DNA of 64,000 nucleotides. Origin: Gemmatimonadota bacterium (lineage in GTDB: Bacteria; Gemmatimonadota; Gemmatimonadetes; Gemmatimonadales; GWC2-71-9). The notes below the pieces were generated by a model. It saw nothing but the letters and a program-made list of their open reading frames with translations. It did no database searches and had not been told where the DNA came from. Made by a program: the position numbers and the translations under genes. Shown piece after piece: positions 3,003 to 56,070 of this stretch (position 1 is the stretch's first letter; the number at the start of each line of letters is the position of its first letter). The DNA lies in the NCBI GenBank assembly GCA_009692185.1, contig SHZT01000009.1, positions 49,335 through 113,334 on the forward strand, given 5' to 3'.

Positions 3003-3035
3003 ATCTTCCCCTCATTCCCCCACGCCGAGATACCA

Positions 3036-4676: not shown

Positions 4677-4683
4677 CCAGCCG

Positions 4684-5499
4684 TTGAAAATCTTTGCCGA
4701 CCAGGCGCTGTCCCGGCGCCTCGAACGAACAGAAGCGACGGCCAACGCGCGGTTCGTCGAGGCACGGGCTTCCCTTTTCCCGAAAAGCGGTGCCACCTGG
4801 ATCGAAGTCGCCGGCGCCTACGCCATGTTCGACGGCGTGGACTCGCCGTGCACCCAGACGTTCGGGCTGGGCGTGTTTCAGGCGCCCACGGTGAGTGACT
4901 TCGAAACCATCGAGCAGTTCTTCCGGGAACTGAAGGCGCCGATGCATCACGAGGTCAGTCCATTGGCTGACCCCGCGACACTTGCCCTGCTCACCCAGCG
5001 GGGGTATCAGCCGATGGAGCTATCCAGCGTGACGTTCTGCCCGATCGAGGAAGCCCTCGCGCTGGCCAATCCGCCGGACACCACGATCAAGACGCGGCTG
5101 ATCCGCAAAGGTGAAGGCCAACTCTGGGCGGAGACGGCGGCGAACGGATGGGCTGACTCGGCGCCGAACGGCGTCCTGACGGACCTGATGCGCGTCACTG
5201 CCGAGCGACCGGAAGCGCTTCCGTTCCTGGCGGAACTGAACGGCGCACCTGTCGCGGCCGGCTCGTTGGCCATTACCGCTGGCGTCGCCTTCCTGGCCGG
5301 GGCGAGCACGATCCCGAGTGCGCGAAGACAAGGCGCCCAGCTGGCGCTATTGAGCGGCCGATTGCGCTACGCGGCGGAACAGGGGTGTGATATCGCGATG
5401 ATGTGCGCGGCCCCCGGGAGTGGTTCCCAGCGCAATGCCGAGCGGAATGGGTTCCGGATCGCCTACACGCGGCTCAAGTGGCAGCTGGCTCCTTGCTAG
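4684..5499 (+). CDS. GNAT family N-acetyltransferase
   Basis: The C-terminal acetyl-CoA motif is ARRQGAQLALLSGRLRYAAEQGCD...RNAERNGFR. Confidence 0.75.
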   Translation: MKIFADQALSRRLERTEATANARFVEARASLFPKSGATWIEVAGAYAMFDGVDSPCTQTFGLGVFQAPTVSDFETIEQFFRELKAPMHHEVSPLADPATLALLTQRGYQPMELSSVTFCPIEEALALANPPDTTIKTRLIRKGEGQLWAETAANGWADSAPNGVLTDLMRVTAERPEALPFLAELNGAPVAAGSLAITAGVAFLAGASTIPSARRQGAQLALLSGRLRYAAEQGCDIAMMCAAPGSGSQRNAERNGFRIAYTRLKWQLAPC

Positions 5500-6670
5500 A
5501 GGGCCCCAGCAACAAGGCCAACGCCAGCACGCCGCCAGCCAGGCCGCTCACGATGAGCGCCGCGGGCCCACCCATCCGCGCATACACCATCCCGAACGTG
5601 ATGCCTCCCAGAAGCCCGGCGATGCCCACGCTTGCGTGGTAGATGCCGAACGTCTTCCCCACGCCCCTGTCTCTCGCCGCGGCGGCCACGAGCGCCCGTT
5701 CCGGTGATTCCGTGAGCGCGGCCACCAGCCCGAACACGAGGAACCAGCCCACGCCGCTCCACGGACTCGTGATCGTGGCCATCGCCATGCACACGAGCCA
5801 GTACGCGAACCACCCGCCGAGCATCACGGACTTCGGGCCCAGGGAATCGGACAGCCGGCCGCCGGGATAACTCAGCGTCGTCCGAATGACATGCAACGCG
5901 GCCCATACGAGAGGGGTGAGGGCCACCGGCAGCCCCAGATCCTTCAGGCGCAGCAGGAACAGCATCTCGGGGAACCGGGCGAAGGCGAACAGGACGATGA
6001 GATAGAGGAGAGAGTTGGGCTGGCGTTTCGCGTTGTTCGGGAAGGGGGAAGCGGGAAGCGGGAAGGGGTTGTCCGCTTCCCCCTTCCCGCTTCCCGCTTC
6101 CCCTCTCACCGCCCAAAACACAGCCAACACCGCAATCAGTCCCGGCACCACGCTCCACACGATCACACGGTCCGGGGAAAGTCCCACCTGGCTCAGCAGG
6201 AGCCACGCCACCAGCGGTCCGACGACCGCGCCCGCGTGGTCCATGGCCCGGTGAAACCCGAACGCACGGCCGCGCATGTCGGGCGTCACGGCATCCGCGA
6301 TCACGGCGTCGCGCGGCGGCGTGCGTAAGCCCTTCCCGACGCGATCTGTCGCGCGGAGCGCGATCACCTGCCACGCGGCCGTGGTCGCGCCGATTACGGG
6401 CCGGGTCACCGCGGCGATGCCGTAGCCGGCGAGGATCAGCGGCCGGCGGAGCCGCGGGCGGTCCGCCAGGAATCCGGACCAGAGCTTGGCGGCGGCGGAC
6501 AGCGCCTCGGAGATCCCGTCGAACAGGCCAAGCGAGAGGGCGCCGCCACCCAGCGACGCCACGAGCGCCGGGATGAGCGGGTAGATCATCTCGCTGGCGA
6601 GATCGTTGAAAAAGGAGACGAGGCCCAGGGATTTGACGACGGGCGGGAGGCCCCGCTCCGATTCACTCAC
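5474..6670 (-). CDS. MFS transporter
   Basis: It has about 12 hydrophobic segments and MFS loop motifs (DRPRLRRPLIL, DRVGKGLRTPPRDA). The central loop carries the repeat-derived insert GEAGSGKGEADNPFPLPASPFP. Confidence 0.85.
   Translation of the reverse strand: MSESERGLPPVVKSLGLVSFFNDLASEMIYPLIPALVASLGGGALSLGLFDGISEALSAAAKLWSGFLADRPRLRRPLILAGYGIAAVTRPVIGATTAAWQVIALRATDRVGKGLRTPPRDAVIADAVTPDMRGRAFGFHRAMDHAGAVVGPLVAWLLLSQVGLSPDRVIVWSVVPGLIAVLAVFWAVRGEAGSGKGEADNPFPLPASPFPNNAKRQPNSLLYLIVLFAFARFPEMLFLLRLKDLGLPVALTPLVWAALHVIRTTLSYPGGRLSDSLGPKSVMLGGWFAYWLVCMAMATITSPWSGVGWFLVFGLVAALTESPERALVAAAARDRGVGKTFGIYHASVGIAGLLGGITFGMVYARMGGPAALIVSGLAGGVLALALLLGPSSKEPAAT
6045..6103. repeat. perfect 24-bp inverted repeat with 11-nt loop, built of GGGAAGC heptamers, inside the MFS CDS
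   Basis: GGGGAAGCGGGAAGCGGGAAGGGG (6045-6068) pairs with CCCCTTCCCGCTTCCCGCTTCCCC (6080-6103). The arms are exact reverse complements (hand-checked). Confidence 0.9.
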
Positions 6671-8285
6671 CGAGTCCCATGCCCCACTTGATCAAACTCA
6701 CCGGCAAGCCACCGTACGCGAGGGCCGCATCGTGGAACCCCCGCAGGGAATAGGCCGAGCCCCGGGCCGCCTTGTACGCCTCGCGGAGCGCCCGGAATTC
6801 CCTCCGCCCCACAGCATAACAGAGCTGGTAGCCTGGAGTCCCGCAGTATCGCCGGACTTCTGCCTCGGCATTGTGGCGGTCGAAGTGCACGCGGTCCACC
6901 AGCATCTGGACCGCCTCGTGAAACGTCATGCCCCGCGTGTGGAGCCCGACGTCCAGCACGATGCGCACCGCCCGCCACATCAGGTGGACCCGCTGGAAGA
7001 AGCGCTCCTCGCGCCCGTAGAACCCTTCCTCGCCCATCATCTCTTCGCAGTACAGCGCCCAGCCTTCGATCGTCAGCGGAGTCCCCACGACGCGCCGAAC
7101 GAGGCGCGGTTGCGCCAGGGCCGTGAGAAACTGGAGGTGGTGACCGGGATACCCCTCGTGGAGCGCGGTGGAGGCCAGCTCGTGCACGCAGTGATCCCGC
7201 AGGATGCGCTCGCTCACCGCCGGGTCGGTGTCCCGGTCCGGAGGAGTCACGAAGAACCTCCCGGTGCGATCCGCGGAAAAAGCCCCCGGCGGCTGATAGG
7301 CCGCGAAGGGCATGAGCGGCTTGAGGAACGCCGGTGTCTCGATGACATCGAGCGGCCCACGCGGAATGGCCACGAGTTTCTCGGCCTCGACGAACTTGCG
7401 GGCCCGGGCCATTTGCCGGCCGTACGCACCGACCAGCTCATTCGCTCCGGGGTGCTCGGCCCGCAACCGGTCCACCAGCTGGGGCCATTTGACGCTGGGG
7501 TCAATCTCCTTCCCCAGGCGCACGAGATCCTGCTCCACCTCTTCGACGAGGTTGGTGCCATACCGCCACAACTCGGGCGCGGTGTCCCGCAAGGCGTGCT
7601 CGTAGTGCAGGCGAAAGTTGAATGCGTCCTCACCGATGGCGAACTCGCCGTTCGCAGACCGCCGGAGGTCATCACCGAGGTAGCGGCCGAACGATGCGAG
7701 TGACGCCTTCGCCTGCGCGACCGTGTCCTGAAAGCCGGGCTCGCTCTTCGGGGCCAGTTGCTCGCTCACCTGGTCCAGCAAGAGTTGCCCACCCCCAACC
7801 ACCGACAGGGCGGTGTCCACGAATACCTGCGGGCAGTCCGCCAGCGTCGCCTTGGCCAACTCGAAGAACTGGGGGACCGCTTCCAGCCGCGCCCGCGCGG
7901 AGCGCGCTCGATGCTCGTGCGGCCGGTCGGTCAGGGCGAGCAGGTGATACAGACCTTCCAGGACGTGGTTGAGCCAGAAACCGGGGTCGGTGACGTGCGG
8001 CTGTTCGATGGTGAACCGCTGGACGGTGACTCGCACGTCGTTGAGCAACGCCGTCCGGTCAATCTCGTCGTCTATGGAGTCGGGTTCCAGCGCCTCGAGC
8101 GAACCGGCGAGCGACTTGAGCGCCACCATGTGCAGCCGGACGCTTTCCTCCGAGTAGTCACCCAGCCGTCCGTCGTGCTCGGTGAGCCCCTGCGCCGTGG
8201 CGAACACCGGGTCCAGGTGCCACCGCAGGTCGAGGTACGAGGGGAAAATCCCCGCGAGACTAGTGTCGTCCGCCAACGCCGGCAC
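6663..8285 (-). CDS. DUF885 family protein (metallopeptidase-like)
   Basis: LHEGYPGHHLQ and GYQLCY motifs, and a size of about 540 aa, are typical of DUF885. Confidence 0.75.
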   Translation of the reverse strand: MPALADDTSLAGIFPSYLDLRWHLDPVFATAQGLTEHDGRLGDYSEESVRLHMVALKSLAGSLEALEPDSIDDEIDRTALLNDVRVTVQRFTIEQPHVTDPGFWLNHVLEGLYHLLALTDRPHEHRARSARARLEAVPQFFELAKATLADCPQVFVDTALSVVGGGQLLLDQVSEQLAPKSEPGFQDTVAQAKASLASFGRYLGDDLRRSANGEFAIGEDAFNFRLHYEHALRDTAPELWRYGTNLVEEVEQDLVRLGKEIDPSVKWPQLVDRLRAEHPGANELVGAYGRQMARARKFVEAEKLVAIPRGPLDVIETPAFLKPLMPFAAYQPPGAFSADRTGRFFVTPPDRDTDPAVSERILRDHCVHELASTALHEGYPGHHLQFLTALAQPRLVRRVVGTPLTIEGWALYCEEMMGEEGFYGREERFFQRVHLMWRAVRIVLDVGLHTRGMTFHEAVQMLVDRVHFDRHNAEAEVRRYCGTPGYQLCYAVGRREFRALREAYKAARGSAYSLRGFHDAALAYGGLPVSLIKWGMGLGE

Positions 8286-9522
8286 CCGTCTCCAACGTGG
8301 CTTCGTTCACGATCCGGTGACACTCGGCCTCCGCCAGCGTGCGATCGGCCGCCTTGGCTGCCGCGAACAGGCGATCGCACACGACCGCGTCGCCAGCATC
8401 GTAGCCATGCTCTTCCAGCCAGCACTTCACGTTCGAGAGTCCCGAGACCGGGGATATCTTGATGCGCTGCTTCAACCCGAACGCCGTGGCCGGGACGGCC
8501 GAGTAGATCCGGTCCGCCAGCCACGCGTCGCCCTTTTTTCGCGCCTTGATGATCGCCGCGGCGTGGACACCGGTGCCCGTGCGGAACGCGTCGGAGCCGA
8601 GCACCGGGTAGTTGGCCGGTAGCGGCACTCCGATCGTGGCCGCGGCCAGCTCGCAGTACTCGCGGAGGCGCGATACGTCGTGCTGATGAGCACCCAGCAG
8701 GTACAGGTTGACGATGAGCAGGTCCATCTCCGCGTTGCCGACCCGCTCGCCCACGCCCAGGGCCGTGCCGTGGATCCGGTTGGCACCGGCGCGAATCGCC
8801 GCGAGGCAGTTGATGAGCCCCAGGCCGCGGTCACGATGCCCGTGCCAGTCAACCTTTACGTCTTCGCCTGAGGGTTTCACGATCTCCTCGATCACGAACC
8901 GCACCAGGCGGTGCGTGCCTTCCGGCGTCGCGTGGCCGACGGTGTCCGCGAGGCAAAGGCGCCGGGCGCCCCAGCGAATGGCGTTGCCGTAGAGCGCCGT
9001 GAGCGTCTCCGGCCGGGCGCGGGTCGAGTCCTCGGCCACGAACATCACCGGGAGGCCTTCGCGCACCGCGAACGTCACGGCCTCTTCGCTGACCCTGAGC
9101 ATCCGCTCCAGCGTCCAGTCCTCGGTGTACTGGCGAATGGGCGATGAGCCGATGAACGTCGCCGCCTCGATGGGGATGCCGACATCGTGGGAAATCTGCG
9201 CGATCGGCTCGACGTCGCTGAGCACCGTGCGCGCGGCGCAGTTCGGCGAAATGGGGATCTTCTCCCGAACGATCTCCTTGGCCAGCGCGCGGACCGAATC
9301 CACCACACGGGGGCCGGCACCCGGCAGGCCGATATCCGCCGAGGCGATCCCCAGGTCGGCCATCAGGTGCAGGAGTTTGAGCTTGACGTCGAGCGGGGGG
9401 TCGATCGCGGAAGGAGACTGGAGGCCGTCGCGCAGGGTCTCGTCATTCAAGTCAATGCGGACGGACTTCCAGTCGAAGCCGGCGTCCGAATTCCAGTCGT
9501 AGATCAGCTGGGATTCGTCCAT
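8260..9522 (-). CDS. isopropylmalate/homocitrate/citramalate synthase family protein (HMGL-like, short form)
   Basis: Motifs are LNDETLRDGLQSP and HGHRDRGLGLINCLAAIRAGANRIHGTALGVGERVGNAEMD. The start is chosen at MDESQLIY (9522) rather than the ORF start 9693. The canonical leuA lies elsewhere (46893..48554). Confidence 0.7.
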   Translation of the reverse strand: MDESQLIYDWNSDAGFDWKSVRIDLNDETLRDGLQSPSAIDPPLDVKLKLLHLMADLGIASADIGLPGAGPRVVDSVRALAKEIVREKIPISPNCAARTVLSDVEPIAQISHDVGIPIEAATFIGSSPIRQYTEDWTLERMLRVSEEAVTFAVREGLPVMFVAEDSTRARPETLTALYGNAIRWGARRLCLADTVGHATPEGTHRLVRFVIEEIVKPSGEDVKVDWHGHRDRGLGLINCLAAIRAGANRIHGTALGVGERVGNAEMDLLIVNLYLLGAHQHDVSRLREYCELAAATIGVPLPANYPVLGSDAFRTGTGVHAAAIIKARKKGDAWLADRIYSAVPATAFGLKQRIKISPVSGLSNVKCWLEEHGYDAGDAVVCDRLFAAAKAADRTLAEAECHRIVNEATLETGAGVGGRH

Positions 9523-9597
9523 TGGCGAAGTCTGCGGCCCGCCCACGGGGGCGTCAAGCTTGCCGGGTGCGCCCGTCGCCCGCCAATTTCCTTCCCC

Positions 9598-10791
9598 ATG
9601 ACCGACACCATTTCCGCTTTGTCCCGCCACCCGGCGCTCACCCGCGGTCACGAACGCCTGATTCGCACAGACGCCCGCACCGTCGCGTGGCAAACGGCGA
9701 TCTGCGAGACGCCCGCGCCAACTGGCCGGGAACAGGCCCGGGGCGCCAAGGTCTCCGGGTTACTGCGCGAGATCGGCTTGACGTCGGTGTCCACTGACGA
9801 CGTCGGCAACGTGATCGCGTGGTGGGGTCCCGCGGACCGGGCCCCGGTGGTCATCGCCGCGCACCTCGACACCGTATTCGGCCCCGGGGTAGATGTGTCA
9901 GTTCGAAAGGACGGCGACCGGCTTATCGGGCCCGGCATTACAGACAATGCGCGCGGCCTGGCCGGCATGCTCGCCCTGGCCGATGTCGTGGCGTCGGGCC
10001 AATGGGCGACCGCGAAGCCCATCGCTTTCGTCGCCACGGTCGGCGAGGAAGGCGCGGGCGACCTGCGTGGCGTGCGGCATCTCTTTGGCGAACGGAAGCT
10101 CGCGGCGGATTCGGTCATCGTGCTGGACGGCGCCGGCGACGACCGCGTGGTCCATGGCGGCCTGGGGTGCCGCCGCTATCGGTTCATGTTCCGTGGCCCC
10201 GGCGGCCACTCGTGGTCCGCATTCGGCGCGCCGAACCCGGCCCACGCGGCGAGTACGCTCACGCAGGCCGTGGCCGAACTGCCCGGCAGGGAAACGCCGC
10301 GTACGACCTGCTCCGTCGTGGGAATCGGCGGCGGAACCAGCCTCAACTCAATACCCGATGAGGCATGGGTCGAAATTGACCTTCGGAGCGAGGGCACCGC
10401 GCCGCTTGAGGAGATCGAACGCGTGCTCCACGCCGCGGCCCGGCTCGGAATGGATCGTGAAAATGCCCGAAAAACGCTGGGGAGCCGAGCGCTCGACCTG
10501 ACCGTGGCGGTCATCGGAGATCGGCCCTCCGGCGTGACACCGGCCGACCACCCGCTGGTGCAGGCTGGTCTGGATGCCACGCGCGCAGTCGGCCGGCGGC
10601 CGGCGCTCGCGACTGCCTCCACGGACGCCAACATTCCGATTTCCCTGGGAATTCCGGCGATCGCGTTGGGGGCCGGCGGCAAAGCCGGAGACACGCACAG
10701 CGCAACGGAGTGGTTTGAGAATGCCGATGGACCGGCGGGAATATTTCGGGCGTTGCTGGTGCTGGCCGCGGCTGCCGGGCTCAACAAATGA
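9598..10791 (+). CDS. M20/M25/M40 family metallopeptidase
   Basis: The sequence shows ..VVIAAHLDTVF..., GITDNARG and GEEGAGDLRG metal-ligand context. The start is chosen at MTDTISAL (9598). Confidence 0.8.
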   Translation: MTDTISALSRHPALTRGHERLIRTDARTVAWQTAICETPAPTGREQARGAKVSGLLREIGLTSVSTDDVGNVIAWWGPADRAPVVIAAHLDTVFGPGVDVSVRKDGDRLIGPGITDNARGLAGMLALADVVASGQWATAKPIAFVATVGEEGAGDLRGVRHLFGERKLAADSVIVLDGAGDDRVVHGGLGCRRYRFMFRGPGGHSWSAFGAPNPAHAASTLTQAVAELPGRETPRTTCSVVGIGGGTSLNSIPDEAWVEIDLRSEGTAPLEEIERVLHAAARLGMDRENARKTLGSRALDLTVAVIGDRPSGVTPADHPLVQAGLDATRAVGRRPALATASTDANIPISLGIPAIALGAGGKAGDTHSATEWFENADGPAGIFRALLVLAAAAGLNK

Positions 10792-10814
10792 GAAGTAAGA
10801 AGTGAGAAGTAAGA
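10789..10814. repeat. left 26-bp terminal inverted repeat of the four-helix-bundle cassette
   Basis: TGAGAAGTAAGAAGTGAGAAGTAAGA. Its first three bases are the stop codon of the M20 peptidase gene. Confidence 0.9.
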
Positions 10815-10819
10815 CGGAG

Positions 10820-11176
10820 TTACTCGCGTCGAACCTTCTTCAGCAAACCCATCACCAACGCCTGACTCTCCCGTGCCGTGGCAACGGCCTTCGCCACCAC
10901 GTCACCCGGCACGAGTTGGGACTCCTCGAGGAGCTCCAAGAGGTCAGATGTTTCCACCGCGGAACCGTAGGCAATCACGAGATGGTTTCTGAAGCGACGC
11001 GATGAGCGTACGGCGTAGCCTTCGGCAATGTTCAATTGCACGGACAGGGCGGCACGCTGAAGCTGGTTGAACACCGCCGACGCCGACGGCTGCCAATGCT
11101 TGCGGCAGAGTTCCAGCACCTGCAGAACCACCGCGTGCGCCCGCTGCCACGCCAAGAGCGTCTTGTGGGTCTGCAT
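10820..11176 (-). CDS. four-helix-bundle protein (23S rRNA intervening-sequence protein / Avd-like family)
   Basis: The translation is MQTHKTLLAWQRAHAVVLQVLELCRK...QLQRAALSVQLNIAEGYAVRSSRRFRNHLVIAYGSAVETSDLLELL. The NIAEGY..R and A.GS..E signatures are typical of this family. Confidence 0.85.
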   Translation of the reverse strand: MQTHKTLLAWQRAHAVVLQVLELCRKHWQPSASAVFNQLQRAALSVQLNIAEGYAVRSSRRFRNHLVIAYGSAVETSDLLELLEESQLVPGDVVAKAVATARESQALVMGLLKKVRRE

Positions 11177-11250
11177 TTCACGAGAGTAATCACCGAGCCG
11201 TGGCAGGAGAGGAGCGAACAAACGCGGGGTGGAGCGAAAAAGCGCGACTT

Positions 11251-11276
11251 TCTTACCTCTCACTTCTTACTTCTTA
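11251..11276. repeat. right 26-bp terminal inverted repeat of the four-helix-bundle cassette
   Basis: TCTTACCTCTCACTTCTTACTTCTTA. Its reverse complement matches the left repeat at 24 of 26 positions. Its last three bases are the stop codon (TAA on the minus strand) of the nucleotidyltransferase gene. Confidence 0.9.
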
Positions 11277-12257
11277 GGGCGCCTTCGCTACCTCGCCCCT
11301 GGTCACGATCATCCGCTTGAGTTTCTGACCAATCACCTCCGAACCTGGTCCCACCAGGCACTCCTCCAGCGTGGAGCCGACGATCTTCGCACCTTCGCCT
11401 ATGATCGTGTCCCGGAGCACGCTGGTCATGACGACCGACCCCGGCTCGATGGACACGTTGGGCCCCAATGTGCAATCCTCCAGTTCGACGCCATCCGCCA
11501 CAAACACAGGGTCGAGTATGCGAACCTGCGCGCGGGGGCTCGGACGCTTCGCACTACCATGGCTCAACAGGTGCAGGTTGGTCTCCAGCACGGTCTCGAT
11601 CTTGCCGCAGTCATACCAGCCGGCGACCGGCGCCGCGAGGATCTTCCGACCGTGATCCACCATGTGCTGGAAGGCCTCGGTGAGGTAGAACTCGCCCTTC
11701 ATGGGCGGCTGTGACCTGGTCCAGGCAATCCCGTCGAACAGCGCCTTCCAATCCTTCATGTAGTAGAGGCCGATGTTGGCGAGCTTGGAAATGGGCTCTT
11801 TCGGCTTCTCGACAATCTTCGTCATGTACCCGTGCGCGTCCGTCACCACCACGCCGAAGCGCTGGTAGTCCTCCACTTCCTTGGCCCAGATGATGCCGTC
11901 GGCCTCGGTGCGCTGGATGAGGGAAAGATCGGCGTCGAAGAGGGTGTCTACGAAAATGATGAGGACGGGCCCGCTGACGTACGAGCGGGCGAGGTCAATC
12001 GCGCTCGCGGTGCCGTCCTGCACCCTCTGCTCGATGAACCGTGCCGGCTGGCGGTAATGCGTCCGGACGTACGCCTCGACCTGCTCCTTCAAGTGCCCGG
12101 TAATAAAAATCAGCTCTTCGACGTCGAGCTGATTCACCTGATCCATGACGTAGTCCATCACCGGGCGCCCGGCGACGCGAATCAGCGGCTTGGGAATCTC
12201 TTTGGTGAGCGGGAGCAGGCGGGTGCCTTTCCCCGCCAGCGGAATAATGACCTTCAC
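11274..12257 (-). CDS. sugar-phosphate nucleotidyltransferase (NTP-transferase domain plus hexapeptide-like C-terminus)
   Basis: N-terminus is MKVIIPLAGKGTRLLPLTKEIPKPLIRVAGRPVMDY. Confidence 0.8.
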   Translation of the reverse strand: MKVIIPLAGKGTRLLPLTKEIPKPLIRVAGRPVMDYVMDQVNQLDVEELIFITGHLKEQVEAYVRTHYRQPARFIEQRVQDGTASAIDLARSYVSGPVLIIFVDTLFDADLSLIQRTEADGIIWAKEVEDYQRFGVVVTDAHGYMTKIVEKPKEPISKLANIGLYYMKDWKALFDGIAWTRSQPPMKGEFYLTEAFQHMVDHGRKILAAPVAGWYDCGKIETVLETNLHLLSHGSAKRPSPRAQVRILDPVFVADGVELEDCTLGPNVSIEPGSVVMTSVLRDTIIGEGAKIVGSTLEECLVGPGSEVIGQKLKRMIVTRGEVAKAP

Positions 12258-12655
12258 TTGCGACCGTAGCGGTCCTTGATGCGGACGACATCTTCGACCT
12301 CGGGCGTGGACACTTCGAGCAAATCCGCCGCGGTGACCGCTTCCATCTGATGGACGGTGGGCGGCGCGATGTGATAGCTCTCGCCCGGGCGCATGCGGCG
12401 CTCGGTCAGTTCCTCACCCACCTTAACCCGGAAGATGATCTCGCCCTTCAGGACGTGAATCGTCTCGTCCTTCTTGTTGTGGTATTGGAGACTCAGGACC
12501 TGTCCCGGCTCGATATGAAGAATCTTGCCGACGTAGCGGTCCGTGCGGGCCCACACCAACTCATAGCCCCAGGGTTTCTCCACGCGGTAGGGCGGCTTGG
12601 CGTCTTCGGCAGAAGGGTGTTCCGCCATGTCAGGCAGGCTGTGTGACTGAGCCAC
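12254..12655 (-). CDS. cupin domain protein (mannose-6-phosphate-isomerase-type cupin)
   Basis: Contains PWGYELVWARTDRYVGKILHIEPGQVLSLQYHNKKDETIHVLKGE. An alternative start at 12628 (MAEHPSA) would remove the overlap with the kinase. Confidence 0.75.
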   Translation of the reverse strand: MAQSHSLPDMAEHPSAEDAKPPYRVEKPWGYELVWARTDRYVGKILHIEPGQVLSLQYHNKKDETIHVLKGEIIFRVKVGEELTERRMRPGESYHIAPPTVHQMEAVTAADLLEVSTPEVEDVVRIKDRYGRK

Positions 12656-14844
12656 TCACGCGCTGGCTGCCCGTCGCCTCGACCCGGACGCCTTCCAGCG
12701 CCTCGTGGAACGCGGCAGCGGTCTGCCAGCGATCTTCCCGCTCCTTGTTCAGCGCCTTGAGAATGATCTCTGCCAGGCGGGCCGGCACACCCGGCTGGAT
12801 CTCGCGCGGATCCACCGGCTTCTCTTCCAGGTGCTTGACCATCAGCGCGGTCACGGTCGGCGCAATGAACACAGGGCGGCCGGTGACGCACTCGAACAGC
12901 ACCGCGCCAGCGGCGTAGAGGTCCGCCCGCACGTCAATCTCCTCGCCCATCAACTGCTCGGGGGCCATGTACTCGGGCGTGCCGATCGCGACGCCCGCCG
13001 CCGTGAGGCCCTTGGCCTCCTGCTGTTTCGATTCCGTCAGCCGCGCGATCCCGAAGTCCATGACCTTGAGGAAGCCGGCCGCATCCACGACCATGTTCTG
13101 CGGCTTGATGTCCCTATGAATCACGCCCTGCTCGTGGGCCACTTCGAGGGCGCGGAGGAGCTGCTTGCCCACGGTGAGAGCCACGGCGGTCGGCAGGTGG
13201 CCCCGCTTCCGGATGAGATCCTTGAGGCTCGTGCCTTCGACGAACTCCATGGTGATGTAGTACATCCCCTGGACCTCGCCCATGTCGTGCGTGCGCACCA
13301 CGTTCCGGTGGGTAATGCGCCGCGCGAGGCGAATTTCCTGCTTGAAACGCTCGAGGGAGGATCCGTCGGCCTGGATCGCGTCGGGCTTGAGCGTCTTGAT
13401 GGCCACGACCTCGTCCAGCTCGCGGTCCACCGCCCGGTACACCACGCCCATACCGCCCACGCCCAGGACCCTCTTGATCTCGTAGCGGTCATCGAGGACG
13501 AACCCGGCCTCGAGCATCTGCCCGCCCGATACGGCCACGGCCCGCGTCGCCATGCCCGGCCCCACCTTCTGCGTGACGTCAGACAGCTGCTGCTGAGTGA
13601 GCGCCTGCGTCGCCGCGGCGCTCGAGGTGCTCATGTACTCGATGAGCGCCTGCTTCTCCTTCAGCTCCTGGAGCATTCTCTGGAACGAGGCCGCCAGCAC
13701 GCCGATCTCGTCGCGCGTCCTGACCTCGATGTTTCCGCTGTACTGCCCTTCGCCGACCTGCCGGGTGACCTCGACCAGCTGCTTGACCGGCCGCGTGATT
13801 TGTCGCGCGAGCACCACGGACGAGAGGATCGCGAGAATGAGCCCGCCGATGAACGCGTAGAGCACCGTCTGCTGCAGCTCGGTGAACACCGCCAGCTCAC
13901 GGCTCCGGGACCGGAACCCGACGTACCCGCCCACCGGCGTGCCAGATGCCGTCACCAGCGGACCGACCACGCCGACCAGCGTCTCGCCGCCGACATCCCA
14001 GCGAACGTGACCACCCGGCTGAAGGCCGGCGAGCGACGTGTCCATGCCGGGCCCGCCGGCCATGGCGTTCGTGACGGCGGCCCGTTCGAGCGTGGACACA
14101 GCGACCTGCGGGACGTTCATCGTGTCGAGCGCGACGATCACGACATCCGAGTTGGTATTCCGCTTCACGTCGGCCACGAACGCGCTGTCAATCGGAACGG
14201 CGGCGACGAGTACGCCGTACAACGCGCGTTGTCCCGCCGTGCCCGGGCTGTAGATCGGCACACCCACGGCCTGGTAGAGAATGAAGCCACCGTCCTCGGT
14301 GGACTCGATCCACGTTCCCTGCGTCGCCTCGCCCTCCAGCGCCTTGCCAACCAGCGCACCTTCGGAAAGGTCAACATCGAACTCATCGCGGCGGTCGGTG
14401 CGGGCCTTGAGCACACCGACGTTGTTGGTGACCGCGGCCCACGACGCGCCGATCTGGCGCTGGAACTCATCCGCCTGGTCCAGGAGATCCGCCCGGTTTC
14501 CCGGCGGCCGCAGTGCCTGTCCGATGCGGGCGAGGTACTGGGGGGACGCGCACGAGCGACCCGGCAACCTGGGACAGGGCATGGGTCCGGCTCTGGAGCG
14601 CGTTCTCGATAGCGGCCCGCGTGGCGGTGAGCGCGCGGTCAATGGACTGGTCGGCCGCGCGGTCCGCGCGCTGCTTGGTGAGGAACAGCGCCCCGCCCAG
14701 CACGACCACGACGACCAGCGCGGTGGCCAGGAAGATCTTGGCGCTGAGGCCGAAGCGGACGCGGGCGCTAATAGCGCGCTCCGCCCCGGGAGTAGGGCTG
14801 TCCGAACTTGTTGAGGTGCTCGACGAACTTGAAACCGCGTGCAT
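12630..14844 (-). CDS. sensor Ser/Thr kinase (TM, periplasmic Cache-like region, TM, HAMP, kinase); apparent frameshift at a G6/C6 run
   Basis: The HAMP segment is ARQITRPVKQLVEVTRQVGEGQYS. The kinase motifs are GVGGMGVVYRA, HRDIKPQNMVV, DFGIARL and GTPEYMAPE. The N-terminal TM and sensor start are read in the frame of ORF 14467..14844, and the rest in the frame of 12630..14924. The exact start is uncertain. Confidence 0.8.
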
Positions 14845-16821: not shown

Positions 16822-16823
16822 GG

Positions 16824-16899
16824 TAAGAAGTGAGAGGTGAGAAGTAAGAAGGAGAGCCGCCACCTTCTTGCTTCTCACTTCTTACGTCTTACTTCTCAC
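16824..16899. repeat. cargo-less hairpin of the same GAGAAGT/AAGAAGT repeat family (about 28-bp stem, 11-nt loop)
   Basis: TAAGAAGTGAGAGGTGAGAAGTAAGAAGG-AGAGCCGCCAC-CTTCTTGCTTCTCACTTCTTACGTCTTACTTCTCAC. Hand pairing gives 24 Watson-Crick pairs, 3 G-U pairs and 1 mismatch. It lies between the porin stop and the TPM gene start. Confidence 0.85.
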
Positions 16900-16915
16900 T
16901 ATCTTTCCCGGCGCG

Positions 16916-25720: not shown

Positions 25721-26299
25721 ATGAAGAGTGCCGTGGTTCTCCTTGCCGCCGCTTCGCTGGTCGGGTCGGGCACGCTGTCGGCCCAGCAACCGGCCGCCGC
25801 CCCGCCGGCGCCGCCACCGCTCGAGATCGGCGCCGTGGCGCCGGACTTCGCCATGCCGGGCGCCACCCGCTACGGCGTTCTGCGGGACCCGATCAAGCTC
25901 AGCGACTTCAAAGGGAAGACGGTCGTGCTGGCCTTCTTCTTCCGCGCCCGAACGCGTGGCTGAACCATCCAAATGCACGCGTACCGTGATCAGTACGCGC
26001 AGATCTTCAGAGGCGGACAGAACGTCGTCCTCATCGGCATCAGCGTAGACAGTGCCGGGGCGCTGGCTTCATGGGCCAGGGATGACCAGTTCCAGTTCCT
26101 GATGGGATCCGACACCGACCAGGCGGTCGGCAAGGCTTACGGCGCTATTCGCGGTGGCTCCGACAACCGGAACCTCTTCGTGGTGGGACCGGACGGGAAA
26201 ATTGCCTGGCGGGCGACGCCGTTCCGCGAGATAGACCCGCTGGCGTACACCGAGCTGGCAGCGGCGCTCGACAAGATCTCACCGCCCGAGCAGAACTAG
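25721..26299 (+). CDS. exported peroxiredoxin (AhpC/TSA-Bcp/AhpE-like) with TGA at the peroxidatic Cys position (candidate selenocysteine)
   Basis: ORFs 25721..25963 and 25973..26299 share one frame. Joined, they read ...FKGKTVVLAFFFRARTRG[TGA]TIQMHAYRDQYAQIF...VVLIGISVDS...DNRNLFVVGPDGKI. The signal peptide is MKSAVVLLAAASLVGSGTLSAQ. Confidence 0.7.
25978..25999 (+). promoter_or_regulatory. candidate bacterial SECIS-like hairpin
   Basis: CGCGTAC (25978-25984) pairs perfectly with GTACGCG (25993-25999). The loop is CGTGATCA. The stem starts 15 nt after the TGA at 25961-25963. Confidence 0.45.
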
Positions 26300-26394
26300 A
26301 CGGATAGGCGGATAGACAGGTAGAAAAAGGGCGGAGACCGATCTTGGTCCCCGCCCTTTCGTTATCTGTCCATCCGTCTATCCGCCTATCCGTC
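26299..26394. repeat. long inverted repeat built of GGATAGG/CGGATAG units, between convergent genes
   Basis: GACGGATAGGCGGATAGAC at 26299-26317 is the exact reverse complement of 26376-26394. The inner parts pair imperfectly. The right arm encodes the last residues and the stop of TlpA. Confidence 0.9.
26324..26359. terminator. bidirectional intrinsic terminator
   Basis: AAAAAGGGCGGAGACC-GATCTT-GGTCCCCGCCCTTT forms an 11-bp stem with one mismatch. It is flanked by an A-run and a T-run and sits between convergent genes. Confidence 0.7.
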
Positions 26395-50147: not shown

Positions 50148-51707
50148 TCAGTCTAAGCCAAATTCCTTCAGCTTGCGATACAACGTTCTCTCGCCAATCT
50201 CGAGCTTCTGCGCCGCCCGCCGCCGGTTCCCCCGGGACTCCCGGAGCGCCGCCTCGATCGCCGCCCGTTCCACCTCGCTCATCTTCATCCCGGGCCGATA
50301 CACCACCTCGCCGCTTGCGGCCGCGAGAGCCCCGTCCGTCCTGCCCGTCCCGTCCGTCTGGTCGGACTCATCCACCCTGACTCCCACCTCGTACGCCGGC
50401 ACCCGCCCCATGTCGATCACTTCGACGCGTTGGGGCGATTCGTCGATTCGGTGACGCAACTGCTCGATCTGGAGCTTGAGCTCAACCAGCGACCGGAATA
50501 TGAACTCCAGTTCGTGACCCTGGAGCCCCGCGCCCCCACCCGCGCCCGGCCCAGGCACGCGCATCGGAAGGAGGCGTGTCCCGCCTTCCTTCACATCCCG
50601 CGGAATGTCGTTCGCCGTGACCTCGCGCCCGTGCGCCAGCACGACCATGGACTCGATGAGATTCCTGAGCTCGCGTACATTGCCCGGCCAGTGCGCGTTC
50701 ACCAGGATCTGCATCGCTTCGGCCGTGAGCCCCACGAACTGACGCCCATGCTGTGCGGAAAGCTCACGCACGAATTTGCGGATCAGGAGCGGGATGTCGC
50801 CCTTCCGCTCGCGAAGCGGCGGCAGGTAGATGGACAGGACGTTCAGCCGGTAGAACAGGTCGTCGCGGAACTGCCCGATCGACACCTGCTCCTTGAGCGA
50901 CCGGTTGGTTGCCGCGACCACCCGTACATCTACCCGGATCGCCTCGGCGCCGCCCACCCGGAAGAACGACTGGCTCTCGAGGACGCGGAGCAGCTTGACC
51001 TGCGTCGAGAGCGGCATCTCACCGACCTCGTCGAGGAACAGCGTCCCGCCGTTGGCCAACTCGAAACGCCCCAGCCGCCGCTCGGCCGCGCCGGTGAACG
51101 AGCCCTTTTCGTGGCCGAAGAGCTCGGACTCTAGAAGTGTCTCAGGCAGGGCCGCGCAATTGACCGCGACGAACGGCTTGGCGCGCCGGGGCGAGAGCGC
51201 GTGGATACCCTGCGCCACCAGTTCCTTGCCCGTGCCGGACTCCCCCTCGACCAGCACCGTCGAGGACACGGGCGCCATCTGCTCGATCTTGACCAGCACT
51301 TCCTGGATCGCCGGGCCTTCGCCGATGATGCCGGTCCGCTCCTGGAGCCGGCGGCGTTCGATGAGCCGCCGCGCCCGGGCGACGACATCGGCGGGGTCCA
51401 CCGGTTTCACCGCCCAAGCGGTGAGGCCGAGCCGCTGGGCGACCCGTGGCGGGTCTGCCTCGGTCGGCTCGAACAGGCCCAGCGTGGACACCGAACGGTC
51501 CCGTGCCATGGCGATGAGATCGGCAGCCGGCCGCTCATGGACCGCGCCACTCAGGATGACTACGTCGGGATCGGCGCCCGTGAGCACCGCGCGCACGTCG
51601 TCCATGGACGAAACCATCGTGGTGGCAAGACCGTCCTTCTCGAACGCCGCGTTGGCCCGCACGGCGGTCTCGAGGTCGTCCATGGTCAGCAGGACGCGGT
51701 CCGTCAT
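50148..51707 (-). CDS. sigma-54-dependent response regulator (receiver, AAA+, Fis-type HTH)
   Basis: Contains [11 protein letters not shown] (Walker A), the GSFTGA loop (GAFTGA type), FLDEVGEM and a C-terminal HTH ([20 protein letters not shown]). Confidence 0.9.
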
Positions 51708-52240
51708 TTGTGGTCCGTGGGAGCGCCGGCCAGCAACTGAACGGCGTGCTCGATGAGCGGCTCGAGGACGGTCAGCCCTTCCTTCACGCCTGACGGACTT
51801 CCGGGGAGGTTGACGATGAGCGCCTGGGCCCGCGTTCCCGCCAGCCCGCGGGACAACGCGCTGCGCGGCGTGTTCGCCTGCCCCGCCGCCCGAATGGCCT
51901 CGGCAATGCCGGGGGCCTCGCGCTCGATCACCGCCCGGGTGGCTTCGGGCGTGACGTCCCTGGGAGACAATCCGGTACCGCCAGTGGTCAGGATCACCTG
52001 CGCCACGTCGTCATCCGCCCAGCGGGAAATAACGGAGGCGATGCGGTCGGTTTCATCCGGCACGACTTCGCGGGCGGATACCTCGTAGCCGCGGGCGGCC
52101 ACCCAGTCGGCGATGGCCTTGCCGGACGTGTCCTCTCGCTTCCCCTGGAAGCCGAGGTCGGAAATGGTGAGCACAGCTACTCGAACCGGAGGGCGTCGCA
52201 CGGCCGCCGTACTTTTCCCTTTTCCCTTTTCCCTTTTCAC
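51704..52240 (-). CDS. mog: molybdopterin adenylyltransferase / MoaB-Mog family
   Basis: Contains [27 protein letters not shown] and NLPGSPSGV. The called GTG start (52240) reads [10 protein letters not shown] from the heptamer repeat. The real start may be an internal GTG (..AVRRPP). Confidence 0.8.
52212..52239. repeat. (CTTTTCC)n heptamer tract, which reads (GGGAAAA)n on the coding strand, at the gcvT/mog junction
   Basis: There are three exact heptamers and one partial copy. Confidence 0.9.
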
Positions 52241-53352
52241 GCCTTTGAAGCTTTCGCTTTCCTCGCACTTCCCTGCCGGTAGAACGGCATCCGTACCACC
52301 TCGGCTTCGATCCGCTTCCCGCGCGAGTCCACCTGGAAGCGCGTGCCTGGCTCAACCGAATGCGTGGGAAGGAACGTGGTGCCGATGCCTTCCTTGAGCG
52401 AGGGGCTGAATCCGCCGCTCCGGACGACGTCGATCTTGGTATCCCGCAGGTACACGTCGTACCCGTGGCGCGGAATCGCGCCCCGGTCGATCATCCGGAA
52501 CCCCACGAGCTTCCGCGTGACGCCCTTTTCCTTGATCGCGCGCAGGGCCTCCTGGCCCACGAACGGCTCGGCCTTGTTGAGCTTCACGATCCAGCCGAGC
52601 CCGGCCTCGTACGGGTTGATCGTGTCGTCGATGTCATTGCCGTAGAGCGCGTACCCCATTTCCAGCCGCAACGAATCCCGGGCACCCAGGCCGATCGGTG
52701 TCGCCCCGCCGGCTTCCACCAACGCCTTCCACATCACCCCCGCGTCGCGGTTCCGGAAATACAGTTCGAATCCGTCTTCCCCGGTGTAGCCCGTGCGGGA
52801 GACGAAGCACTGCACGCCGGCGATATCGCCGACCTTGAAGTGGTAGTACCCGATGTCATGCAGCGGGACCTGGGTGAGCGAACGCAGCAGCGTCTCCGCC
52901 TTGGGGCCCTGCACGGCGAGGAGTGACACCTCGTCCGAAATATTCCGGAGGCGTACGTCTCCCGACCGCCGTGAAGAGATGTGGGCCCAGTCCTTCTCGA
53001 TATTCGACGCGTTGACGACCATCATCAGCTTGTCGCCGAACTGGTAGACGATGCAGTCGTCCACCACGGTTCCCTGGTCGTTCAGAATGGCCGAGTACTG
53101 CGCCTGCCCGATATCGAGTGTCGAAACGTCGTTCGAGGTCATCCGGTTTACGAAGTCATTCCGCTCGCGGCCGGTCACTTCGAACTCGCCCATGTGGGAC
53201 ACGTCGAACACGCCGACCCCCGTGCGCACGGCCTCGTGCTCCTTTGTAATGCCGGTTGGGTACTGTACCGGCATCTCGTACCCGGCGAACGGGACGATCT
53301 TGCCCCCGGCCGCCACATGGAAGTCGTAGAAGGGCGTGCGTTTGAGTGTCAT
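52237..53352 (-). CDS. gcvT: glycine cleavage system aminomethyltransferase T
   Basis: Contains MTLKRTPFYDFHVAAGGKIVPFAGYEMPVQY and FDVSHMGEF. The start is chosen at 53352 (ATGA overlap with the argF stop). Confidence 0.95.
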   Translation of the reverse strand: MTLKRTPFYDFHVAAGGKIVPFAGYEMPVQYPTGITKEHEAVRTGVGVFDVSHMGEFEVTGRERNDFVNRMTSNDVSTLDIGQAQYSAILNDQGTVVDDCIVYQFGDKLMMVVNASNIEKDWAHISSRRSGDVRLRNISDEVSLLAVQGPKAETLLRSLTQVPLHDIGYYHFKVGDIAGVQCFVSRTGYTGEDGFELYFRNRDAGVMWKALVEAGGATPIGLGARDSLRLEMGYALYGNDIDDTINPYEAGLGWIVKLNKAEPFVGQEALRAIKEKGVTRKLVGFRMIDRGAIPRHGYDVYLRDTKIDVVRSGGFSPSLKEGIGTTFLPTHSVEPGTRFQVDSRGKRIEAEVVRMPFYRQGSARKAKASKA

Positions 53353-54299
53353 CGTGTTTTGCTTTTCCCTTTTCCCTTTTCCCTTTTCCCGCTTCTCGAT
53401 CCGCCCATCAACGTCGCCATCAACGCTTTCTGCACGTGAAGCCTGTTCTCCGCCTGGTCCCACACCCGGGAATGCGAACCTTCCATTACCTCGTCGGTGA
53501 CTTCCTCCCCACGGTGTGCGGGCAGGCAGTGAAGAAAAATGGCGTTCTTTGCGGCGAGCCCCATGAGATTGTCGTCCACCATGTATCCGTGAAACGCCAG
53601 CCGCCGTGCTTCGGCTTCCGCTTCCTGGCCCATCGAAGCCCAGACATCCGTGTTGATCACGTGCGCTCCCCTGGCTGCCTCTTCGGGCTCCTCGGTCACG
53701 GATACGTCGGCTCGAGACTTGGCCCACTCGAAAATCTCCCGGTTGGGCTCATAGCCCTCCGGGCAGGCGATGCGCAGGGTAAACCCCAGCTGGCCGGCCG
53801 CCTGCAACCACGTGTTGGCCATGTTGTTCCCGTCGCCGATCCACGCCACGACCTTGCCCTTCCAGCCGCCCAGGCATTCGCGCACCGTCAGGAGATCCGC
53901 GAGCACCTGGCAGGGGTGCAAGAGGTCCGTGAGTCCGTTGATGACCGGTACGGCCGCGTGACGGGCTAGGTCCTCGACCTCGTCGTGCGCATACGTCCGG
54001 ATGACGATCCCGTTCAGGTAGCGTGAGAGCACCCGCGCGGTGTCACGGATCGGCTCTCCCCGGCCCAGCTGGAGGTCACGAGACGAGAGGAACATGGGGT
54101 GCCCGCCGAGCTGATAGGTGCCCACCTCGAACGACACCCGGGTCCGCGTGCTGCTCTTGGCGAACAGCATCCCCACGGCCTTGCCGGCCAGTGGCCTGGC
54201 CAGGTACTTCCCCGCCTTCATCGCGGCCGCCATGTCCAGCACGGCCCCGATTTCCTTCGGGGAAAAGTCCGTCAGTGCGAGAAAGTCCCGTTTAGGCAT
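53349..54299 (-). CDS. argF: ornithine carbamoyltransferase
   Basis: Contains STRTRVSFE, HPCQVLAD, DVWASMGQE and HCLPAHRGEEV. The start is chosen at MPKRDF (54299). Confidence 0.9.
   Translation of the reverse strand: MPKRDFLALTDFSPKEIGAVLDMAAAMKAGKYLARPLAGKAVGMLFAKSSTRTRVSFEVGTYQLGGHPMFLSSRDLQLGRGEPIRDTARVLSRYLNGIVIRTYAHDEVEDLARHAAVPVINGLTDLLHPCQVLADLLTVRECLGGWKGKVVAWIGDGNNMANTWLQAAGQLGFTLRIACPEGYEPNREIFEWAKSRADVSVTEEPEEAARGAHVINTDVWASMGQEAEAEARRLAFHGYMVDDNLMGLAAKNAIFLHCLPAHRGEEVTDEVMEGSHSRVWDQAENRLHVQKALMATLMGGSRSGKREKGKGKSKTR
53354..53397. repeat. (CTTTTCC)4 heptamer tract, which reads (GGGAAAA)4 on the coding strand, at the argF/gcvT junction
   Basis: Four exact heptamers span 53362-53389, flanked by degenerate copies. 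They are translated as the argF tail [14 protein letters not shown]. Confidence 0.9.
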
Positions 54300-55496: not shown

Positions 55497-55859
55497 TCAG
55501 GCCGCGAGGGGGATGCGTTTCGAGCGGCGGAGCCGACGATCGCGGGTCACCAGCGGTACGCCGTGCACCACACTCGTAGCGCCAATCAGCTCGTCGGCCG
55601 GGTCTCCCTTGATATCGAGCCGGCAGCTCTCCCGGCACACTTCCCAGCTCAGCGGCCACGTGTGAATGCGCGCGAGCGCCCGGGTAACGTCGGCGTCGTC
55701 CACGTCCAGGACGATTCGCCCCAGCTGGTGCAACTTGCAGATCTCCCACCGAACGATGGCGGAAATACTCCAGGTATCCCCGGACAACAGCGCCCGCTCC
55801 CGGGCGGTCAACCGGCCGCCCAGGGCATGCAACAAGATGTGGGTATCAAGATTCAGCAT
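55497..55859 (-). CDS. vapC: type II toxin, PIN-domain (VapC family)
   Basis: MLNLDTHILLHAL...ISAIVRWEI...DPADELIGATSVVHGVPLVTRD shows a PIN acidic-residue pattern. Confidence 0.8.
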   Translation of the reverse strand: MLNLDTHILLHALGGRLTARERALLSGDTWSISAIVRWEICKLHQLGRIVLDVDDADVTRALARIHTWPLSWEVCRESCRLDIKGDPADELIGATSVVHGVPLVTRDRRLRRSKRIPLAA

Positions 55860-56070
55860 TCCAGGAGGCCCCGGTAAAAACAACATCTCCGGTAATCTTC
55901 AGCTTGCCCTCGAGCGATCCCAGGAGACCGCGGGACTCGCCATGGACCGGGATGAGCTTCGCCACCGGTTTCCCATGCTTGGTGATCACAATGCCATCCG
56001 GGCCGACGGCGTCCAGCAACGCCAGGCACTGCTGCTTGAACTGGGCCGCCCCGATGATCTTTGGTGGCAT
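55846..56070 (-). CDS. type II antitoxin (Phd/YefM-like)
   Basis: This 74-aa protein reads ..GAAQFKQQCLALLDAVGPDGIVITKHGKPVAKLIP. It overlaps the vapC start by 14 nt. Confidence 0.7.
   Translation of the reverse strand: MPPKIIGAAQFKQQCLALLDAVGPDGIVITKHGKPVAKLIPVHGESRGLLGSLEGKLKITGDVVFTGASWNAES

Follow-up and report, generated by a model that had tools for sequence, protein, structure and literature searches.

A 64-kb stretch of a Gemmatimonadota metagenome-assembled genome (ENA ERZ1305449; contig SHZT01000009.1), referred to here as the window, carries on its minus strand an operon composed of argF, gcvT, mog and a gene for a sigma-54 activator that follows mog. On either side of gcvT, and on that same strand, lies a short tandem array of the heptamer GGGAAAA, one at the argF-gcvT junction and the other at the gcvT-mog junction (Table 1). 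We favor, with moderate confidence, the reading that both tracts represent a single unit family, each copy being 'solo' (one-armed, without a partner), and that this family is part of a class of short tandem arrays found across the lineage. Members of this class would consist of about four units of 7-8 nucleotides (nt), placed at gene junctions directly past a stop codon, the mRNA carrying the G/purine-rich strand. The tracts can be explained without any regulatory role dedicated to gcvT.

The upstream array itself occupies positions 53390-53363 of the minus strand in the context ..AGAAGC(GGGAAAA)x4GCAAAACACGATGACA.. and, taken with its flanks, reads GC(GGGAAAA)x4G (53392-53362). Ten nucleotides separate it from the gcvT ATG (53352-53350), which is overlapped by the argF TGA (53351-53349) as ATGA. 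The downstream array proper (52240-52213) reads ..AAAGGC GTGAAAA(GGGAAAA)x3 GTACGGCGGCCGTG.., its GTG overlapping the gcvT TGA (52239-52237), and the in-frame GTG at 52201 follows 11 nt after the end of the tract. The sequence, Tandem Repeats Finder (TRF) and a probe search all confirmed both tracts on the minus strand as given in a preliminary description of this DNA, which was also correct in placing ATGA (argF/gcvT) and GTGA (gcvT/mog) overlaps at the two junctions and in noting that gcvT is bracketed by one heptamer.

Both tracts are perfect repeats of period 7 according to TRF, with 3.9 and 4.1 copies and 100% matches. When up to 2 mismatches were allowed, the two-unit probe GGGAAAAGGGAAAA matched the window 7 times, compared to 0.19 times in shuffled sequences; 6 of these matches overlap inside the two gcvT tracts, and the other is a 2-mismatch match at 4768-4781. 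The tracts are also the longest homopurine/homopyrimidine runs of the window (29 and 27 nt), the next-longest homopurine run being 14 nt and the maximum over 200 Markov simulations 22 nt. Together with their flanks, the two copies are identical at 31 of 33 nt (AAGCGGGAAAA... vs AGGCGTGAAAA...). Neither is predicted to form Watson-Crick structure, with a minimum free energy (MFE) of 0 for the upstream and -2.1 kcal/mol for the downstream tract, and a TTTTCCC-type partner arm on the same strand is absent from the entire window. Gene calling gave the same 316-amino acid (aa) ArgF for two different contigs from the sample, and the upstream tract is therefore not a one-off assembly artefact.

Table 1. 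Genes and repeat arrays in the window and arrays at the corresponding junctions of related loci.
Feature	Position	Strand	Remarks
argF (ornithine carbamoyltransferase, 316 aa)	53349..54299	minus	Pfam; conserved core ends ..ATLMG(G)
gcvT (aminomethyltransferase, 371 aa)	52237..53352	minus	Pfam; without canonical Shine-Dalgarno sequence; start overlaps argF stop
mog (MogA/MoaB family)	51704..52201	minus	Pfam; 165 aa from GTG 52201, the most likely start
Upstream array (GGGAAAA)x4 + G	53362..53390	minus	purine-only; within 3' end of extended argF open reading frame
Downstream array GTGAAAA(GGGAAAA)x3 + G	52212..52240	minus	gcvT TGA within first unit
Hairpin, arms of about four GTAAGAA/GTGAGAG heptamers and complement	16822..16900	plus	directly after upstream gene TAG
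Two inverted GTAAGAA/GTGAGAA arrays	10789-10814 and 11250-11276		each begins at stop codon of convergent flanking gene
Hairpin GGGAAGC x4 / GCTTCCC x4	6039..6102		in frame inside gene of major facilitator superfamily (MFS) transporter
Hairpin, 8-nt periodic arms (ACGGATAG, GCGGATAG ...)	26297..26392	plus	begins at upstream gene TAG
L081, nearest relative	argF-gcvT junction		GGAAAAA GGGAAAA GGGAAAA GGGAAAC; three G3 runs
L082	argF-gcvT junction		GGGAAGA x3 plus x4
L083	argF-gcvT junction		GGCGGCCC x4; partly complementary array past ATG
L085, L086	argF-gcvT junction		heptamer hairpins
L088 (GCA_016209985.1)	argF-gcvT junction		GGCGGGTC hairpin
L209	gcvT-mog junction		GGGGGAA x4
L210	gcvT-mog junction		GGGGAAA-type x4

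The operon looks translationally coupled because no promoter- or terminator-like sites were predicted between these genes (scan of 50-56 kb on the operon strand) and several of the adjoining genes are joined by ATGA overlaps without a Shine-Dalgarno sequence (SD). At gcvT the closest AAGGG ends 14 nt ahead of the ATG and does not qualify as an SD; the SD-bearing genes of the window carry GGGAG or AAGGAGG at 4-6 nt. The upstream tract begins 12-15 nt (4-5 codons) past the conserved ..LMG(G) end of ArgF, and roughly the last 16 argF codons (53352-53399) derive from reading through the array and the sequence on either side of it as far as the ATGA. As a purine-only array is stop-free in every frame, the argF open reading frame (ORF) reads through to the gcvT ATGA, which would preserve the coupling. 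That the argF ORF translates the upstream tract as a C-terminal tail, as first described, is seen directly in the 316-aa ORF.

The same description would have the downstream tract form the N-terminus of Mog if the GTGA-coupled start is used. An ORF from GTG 52240 (178 aa) does start with the tract peptide, but comparison with related proteins indicates that the start of mog is most likely GTG 52201. In the NCBI record, protein P0121, which is 99% identical, has a length of 165 aa, matching a start at this codon; Mog relatives begin 3-7 residues ahead of RVAVLT, and the Pfam domain begins at residue 22 of the 178-aa form. A further start, GTG 52174 (156 aa), was the choice of one gene caller. 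If mog starts at 52201, the downstream array is therefore an untranslated 39-nt spacer in this genome.

The same junctions in relatives show how such arrays vary. No array is present in 8 more distant syntenic relatives (L001, L002, L004, L013, L015, L032, L035 and L038; GcvT 52-68% identity), in which ArgF ends ..LMG and gcvT follows within a few nucleotides. In closer metagenomic relatives, whose ArgF is 70-85% identical, the argF-gcvT junction is occupied and the content of the array varies (Table 1), with units that include GTGAGCG and GTGAACG, both incapable of forming a G-quadruplex (G4). The gcvT-mog junction of L088 holds about 12 direct copies of GGCGGGTC, and gcvT is thus bracketed by one unit there too. 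Arrays that are uniform internally and different between genomes are the signature of concerted repeat evolution and not of a conserved peptide.

Arrays of this kind are common in the lineage. Over a total of 473 kb of DNA from Gemmatimonadota, TRF found 35 arrays of period 7 and 24 of period 8, compared to 2 to 9 each for periods 5, 6 and 10. The copy number is about four regardless of the unit, even for units free of G-runs such as GTAAGAA, which shows the four-unit preference also for units incapable of quadruplexes. Most lineage arrays are inverted pairs that begin no more than about 20 nt from a stop codon, purine-richer arm first. One unit recurs kilobases apart in a single contig in L005, L012, L038, L086, L088 (three families) and the window (two families), and period-7 arrays of a similar kind are also found in Bacteroidota and Ignavibacteriota loci.

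The window itself contains five further arrays at four other loci, each of about four 7-8-nt units (Table 1). Both hairpins that were folded are extremely stable: the one at 16822-16900 has a predicted RNA MFE of -46.8 kcal/mol (z -7.4), and the one at 6039-6102 reaches -63.4 kcal/mol (z -8.6) while encoding ..GEAGSGKGEADNPFPLPASPFP.. in the MFS protein. We considered the latter as a clean insertion and rejected this idea, as orthologues hold a segment of similar length, often GxGKRExG. As a separate observation, the 12 kb of L088 from 1934 to 12880 carry a 7-/8-mer array or hairpin at most co-directional gene junctions, with three unit families that each recur 1-6 kb apart and one array of ~12 units (12154-12255).

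To these lineage data an independent sample can be added. A metagenome scan with (GGGAAAA)3 returned at least 120 stretches (L089-L208) from contigs of 34-72% GC, with 122 independent tracts; the counts given in this paragraph are among the matches listed. For 27 of 76 informative tracts, a long ORF on the purine strand has its stop codon between -60 and +8 nt from the 5' end of the tract; on the other strand this holds for 11 of 76, and at random positions for 11%. No enrichment of start codons was seen 3' of the tract (22 sense vs 24 antisense; 87 informative tracts), and the idea of a translation enhancer was rejected on this count. About 74% of the tracts have no detected partner arm, and GGGAAAA tracts often adjoin other heptamer arrays (GGGACAA, GGGAACA, GGGGATA, GGCAGAA, GTGACTA).

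The sample also has a strong polarity: a TTTTCCC arm lies 3' of GGGAAAA in 32 of the tracts among the matches listed and 5' in only 3. As the complementary arm is mostly 3', both strands read the purine arm first. In one stretch (L163, 1-1750) a composite repeat occurs in two direct copies 1.65 kb apart, in the order AATTAGC-type array, (GGGAAAA)3-4, GTACGACAACGT and CCTTTCA array, which suggests that whole multi-array blocks can be duplicated.

A comparable class has been described in other phyla, where the unit is GGGAATC in Xanthomonas and GGGGA(C/T)T in Nostoc (Rehm et al., 2015, PLoS One; PMC4692102). These repeats are dispersed, have a mode of four units, lie mostly between co-oriented ORFs and frequently form convergent inverted pairs. 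Their G-rich strand is the coding strand, located 0-50 bp past or overlapping a stop codon, at a mean distance of 28 nt to the 5' ORF and 160 nt to the 3' ORF. Related species carry repeats at the same junctions, though length and sequence vary. The repeats form G4 in vitro and no function was identified in that study, which cites earlier work on an excess of heptamer repeats in bacteria and on the idea that polymerase slippage underlies it (PMC4692102).

The gcvT tracts share with that class a period-7 heptamer with a G3 run and 100% matches in TRF, four units in each tract, and a stop-proximal position on the coding strand between co-oriented ORFs. As for dispersal, the 64 kb of the window hold two GGGAAAA loci and the two-unit trace at 4768-4781. 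In all features testable at the level of sequence the tracts agree with the known G-rich heptamer repeat class, and on that basis they belong to it, which extends this stop-codon-proximal class to Gemmatimonadota. They differ from the members described before in the phylum and in a unit, GGGAAAA, that is purine-only; the arrays are here squeezed into overlapping-gene junctions, where the flanking ORFs read through them. Many sister arrays are moreover free of G-runs, unlike those of the described class, and G4 competence is no common denominator.

Other known systems resemble the tracts in part. Cyanobacterial short tandemly repeated repetitive (STRR) sequences, reportedly described by Mazel and colleagues in 1990, a work cited in PMC4692102, likewise consist of heptanucleotides in tandem; a genome has several unit families, scattered over its non-coding DNA. 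They are said to have been treated only as fingerprinting repeats of filamentous cyanobacteria and, to our knowledge, have not been linked to stop codons or operon junctions. Repetitive extragenic palindromic (REP) sequences, their bacterial interspersed mosaic elements (BIME) and REP doublets forming hairpins (REPIN) are similar in being short, dispersed, intergenic 3' elements that occupy operon junctions, evolve in concert and form hairpins, as the paired members do here. Unlike the gcvT tracts, REPs have no internal periodicity, and they have a conserved family sequence and a link to the REP-associated tyrosine transposase (RAYT). The inverted repeat typical of REPs and of miniature transposable elements with inverted repeats (MITEs) is lacking in the gcvT tracts, which are non-palindromic with no partner arm, and present in other arrays of the window. 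Rickettsia palindromic elements are mobile palindromes of 100-150 bp inserted in frame into ORFs. With these the arrays share the addition of unconserved peptide by in-frame repeat DNA (the ArgF tail, the Mog extension of L209, the MFS hairpin); the repeat DNA is here made of heptamer arrays.

As we picture it, the class to which the solo gcvT arrays would belong spans Gemmatimonadota, Bacteroidota, cyanobacteria and Xanthomonas. Its arrays may arise and stay uniform through slippage or gene conversion and spread within a genome as same-unit families, and the presence of GGGAAAA on both sides of gcvT could be due to such spread. At the argF-gcvT junction an array would be tolerated as it is stop-free: argF would end at the gcvT ATG with coupling preserved. 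The downstream array would serve as the 39-nt spacer or as an optional N-terminal extension before mog, and the translated tails would be by-products. On the mRNA, the tracts would amount to pairing-incompetent, C-free purine spacers, and their effect on expression is probably small.

Several points weigh against this explanation. Relatives with a protein identity of only 70-85% still carry perfect arrays at the same junctions, a persistence that is difficult to square with purely neutral DNA, and the gcvT-mog arrays are strictly purine-only; persistence and composition together suggest either selection at the nucleotide level or very active homogenisation. The number of GGGAAAA units refers to the 64-kb window only and not to the whole source genome, the mechanism of spread is one that we infer, and both the 7-8 nt period and the purine-arm-first order are left unexplained. 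Because perfect arrays persist across such deep divergence, an adaptive purine spacer or a structural role stays alive as a rival.

The spacer is the rival that survives best, although we still regard it as unlikely. It holds that the purine tract has been selected as an unpaired, C-free and weakly SD-like (AAAGGG) segment that keeps the re-initiation region open in an mRNA of 65% GC; it might in addition keep Rho off the sense transcript and offer a pyrimidine-rich Rho-loading site on antisense RNA. The predicted lack of structure (MFE 0 and -2.1 kcal/mol, unpaired probability 0.7-0.8) fits this proposal, as do the absence of a canonical SD at gcvT and mog and the plausible start codon found 10-11 nt past the end of each tract. 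The gcvT-mog arrays of L209, L210 and the window are 92-97% purine despite their differing units, and at least 12 Mog homologues have extensions made only of G, K, R and E, again with differing units. Against this proposal, the anchor of the arrays is the upstream stop codon and not the downstream start, and start codons are not enriched 3' of the tracts (22 vs 24, as above). Moreover, the last GGG lies 14 nt from the gcvT ATG, too distant for a normal SD, and the L209 tract is located downstream of the sole in-frame start.

Slightly less probable in our judgement, and weakly supported, is a regulatory G-quadruplex. In this proposal, which goes back to the preliminary description, the upstream tract would fold as an RNA G4 at the argF/gcvT coupling point and tune the translation of gcvT, and of mog via the second tract. 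The upstream tract does have the formal G3N4 x4 motif, four G3 runs with A4 loops (G4Hunter 1.29-1.50), and ViennaRNA with G4 terms places a three-tier quadruplex in its MFE structure (-11.7 kcal/mol isolated), the MFE of the context shifting from -58.7 to -72.3 once G4 energies are allowed. At least 4 G-runs are also present in the L209, L210 and L082 arrays, and the related Xanthomonas and Nostoc heptamers form G4 in vitro (PMC4692102). The motif nevertheless fails in the downstream tract, which has just three G3 runs, a G4Hunter score of 1.04 and no quadruplex in its MFE structure, and in the L081 tract, which has three as well. Relatives carry non-G4 units or hairpins at the same site, the four-unit preference extends to G-run-free units, and ribosomes translating the ORF that contains the upstream tract would presumably unwind a quadruplex at each pass. 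Nor does a G4 replace a missing hairpin arm, an idea rejected after comparing 105 tracts among the matches listed, in which at least 4 G-runs were found as often in partnerless (52/75) as in hairpin arrays (22/30; p = 0.81). By these predictions, G4 formation is possible for one tract and is not the property common to the class.

Two inverted arrays of the window (10789-11276) enclose a PF05635 gene of the 23S rRNA-intervening-sequence/four-helix-bundle family (10823-11263, minus strand). The same nesting is seen among the matches listed in 7 of the 120 loci (L104, L123, L136, L160, L197, L203 and L204; 36-62% GC), fished with (GGGAAAA)3 only. We found no literature linking the PF05635 family to heptamer repeats, nothing relevant on heptanucleotide repeats of Gemmatimonadetes, and nothing relevant in Huang and Mrazek (2014).

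A more speculative proposal, to which we give only a small chance, is that the arrays are cis-elements of a dispersed, possibly mobile hairpin family in which the loop of full-length members carries the PF05635 gene, the gcvT tracts are partnerless arms and the four-helix-bundle protein binds, processes or propagates the arrays. If true, it would assign a function to an orphan family of proteins that is very large, and would account for the heptamer excess long noticed in bacteria; the PF05635 genes nested in arrays are the sole lead here with larger potential.

That the Lys/Gly/Glu/Arg-rich ArgF tail and Mog N-terminus act as functional protein extensions is highly improbable. The preliminary description proposed to compare these ends with orthologues, and the outcome was divided: such ends recur, but the peptides are unconserved and the units change. 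Among 120 ArgF homologues, 36 have heterogeneous tails of at least 13 aa, whereas 81 have none and stop at ..LMG(G/GA); the tails are wholly unlike in sequence and length and mirror whichever repeat unit the DNA beneath them contains. At least 12 of 120 Mog homologues have called N-terminal extensions consisting solely of G, K, R and E, the residues of purine-only codons, and the swaps between them (E/G, K/R, R/G) are A/G transitions in such codons, with no conservative replacement. The L209 tract must be translated, as the only start codon in frame, a GTG, overlaps the gcvT stop, and this speaks for an extension in that locus; in both proteins, though, the segments lie outside the Pfam domains. 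Judged from these comparisons, stop-free purine DNA that is read through accounts for both the ArgF tail and the possible Mog N-terminus, and neither is conserved protein. Repeats in overlapping-gene junctions can thus be mistaken for protein tails, which matters for the annotation of C- and N-termini in these genomes.

Equally hard to sustain is recoding or phase variation, in which a -1 frameshift, or a change in length by a single unit, would either join ArgF and GcvT in one protein or break their coupling and make expression switchable. GGGAAAA is a slippery heptamer of the X_XXY_YYZ form, read as G_GGA_AAA, within AAG_GGA_AAA, in the argF register at the third unit; gcvT is in the -1 frame, which stays open across the tract (ORF 52237-53727), and a 7-nt change alters the reading frame. 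One unit in three is in register in any heptamer array by arithmetic, however, while relatives have non-slippery units (GGGAAGA in L082, GGCGGCCC in L083) and no stimulatory structure lies 3' of the slippery site. The 120 closest ArgF homologues include no protein of ArgF-GcvT fusion length (the longest is 402 aa), and two contigs of the sample give an identical ArgF of 316 aa. Housekeeping genes and just four units are also atypical of contingency loci, a conclusion reached likewise for the Xanthomonas and Nostoc repeats (PMC4692102).

The weakest proposal is that gcvT is a cassette, inserted recently or excisable, with the direct repeats, identical at 31/33 nt, as its target-site duplications or recombination sites. 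This is very improbable: the argF-gcvT-mog order is kept in the eight array-free relatives as well as in L088 and L209, the unit has no recombinase or transposase gene next to it, and same-unit arrays at neighboring junctions are general in the lineage.

Upstream of argF, between hslU and a kinase-like gene, the window carries a PhdYeFM antitoxin/PIN toxin pair (55497-56070) that is missing from this position in the syntenic relatives L085-L088.

Concerning the regulation of gcvT itself, the lack of a glycine riboswitch, which the preliminary description singled out, is real and unremarkable: a search at Rfam gathering scores of the window and of 16 related Gemmatimonadota gcvT loci found no riboswitch, leader or known RNA in any of them, and an absent glycine riboswitch is normal for this lineage. 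The tracts reveal no new regulatory mechanism for glycine cleavage. In Gemmatimonadaceae in which gcvT is not preceded by argF, the motif TGGCA-N6-7-TGCCA-N6-7-CATATT is conserved ~40-100 nt upstream of gcvT (L011, L014, L017, L024, L027, L028, L030, L031 and L033). From its sequence, this motif could be an operator plus promoter in place of the glycine riboswitch of other phyla.

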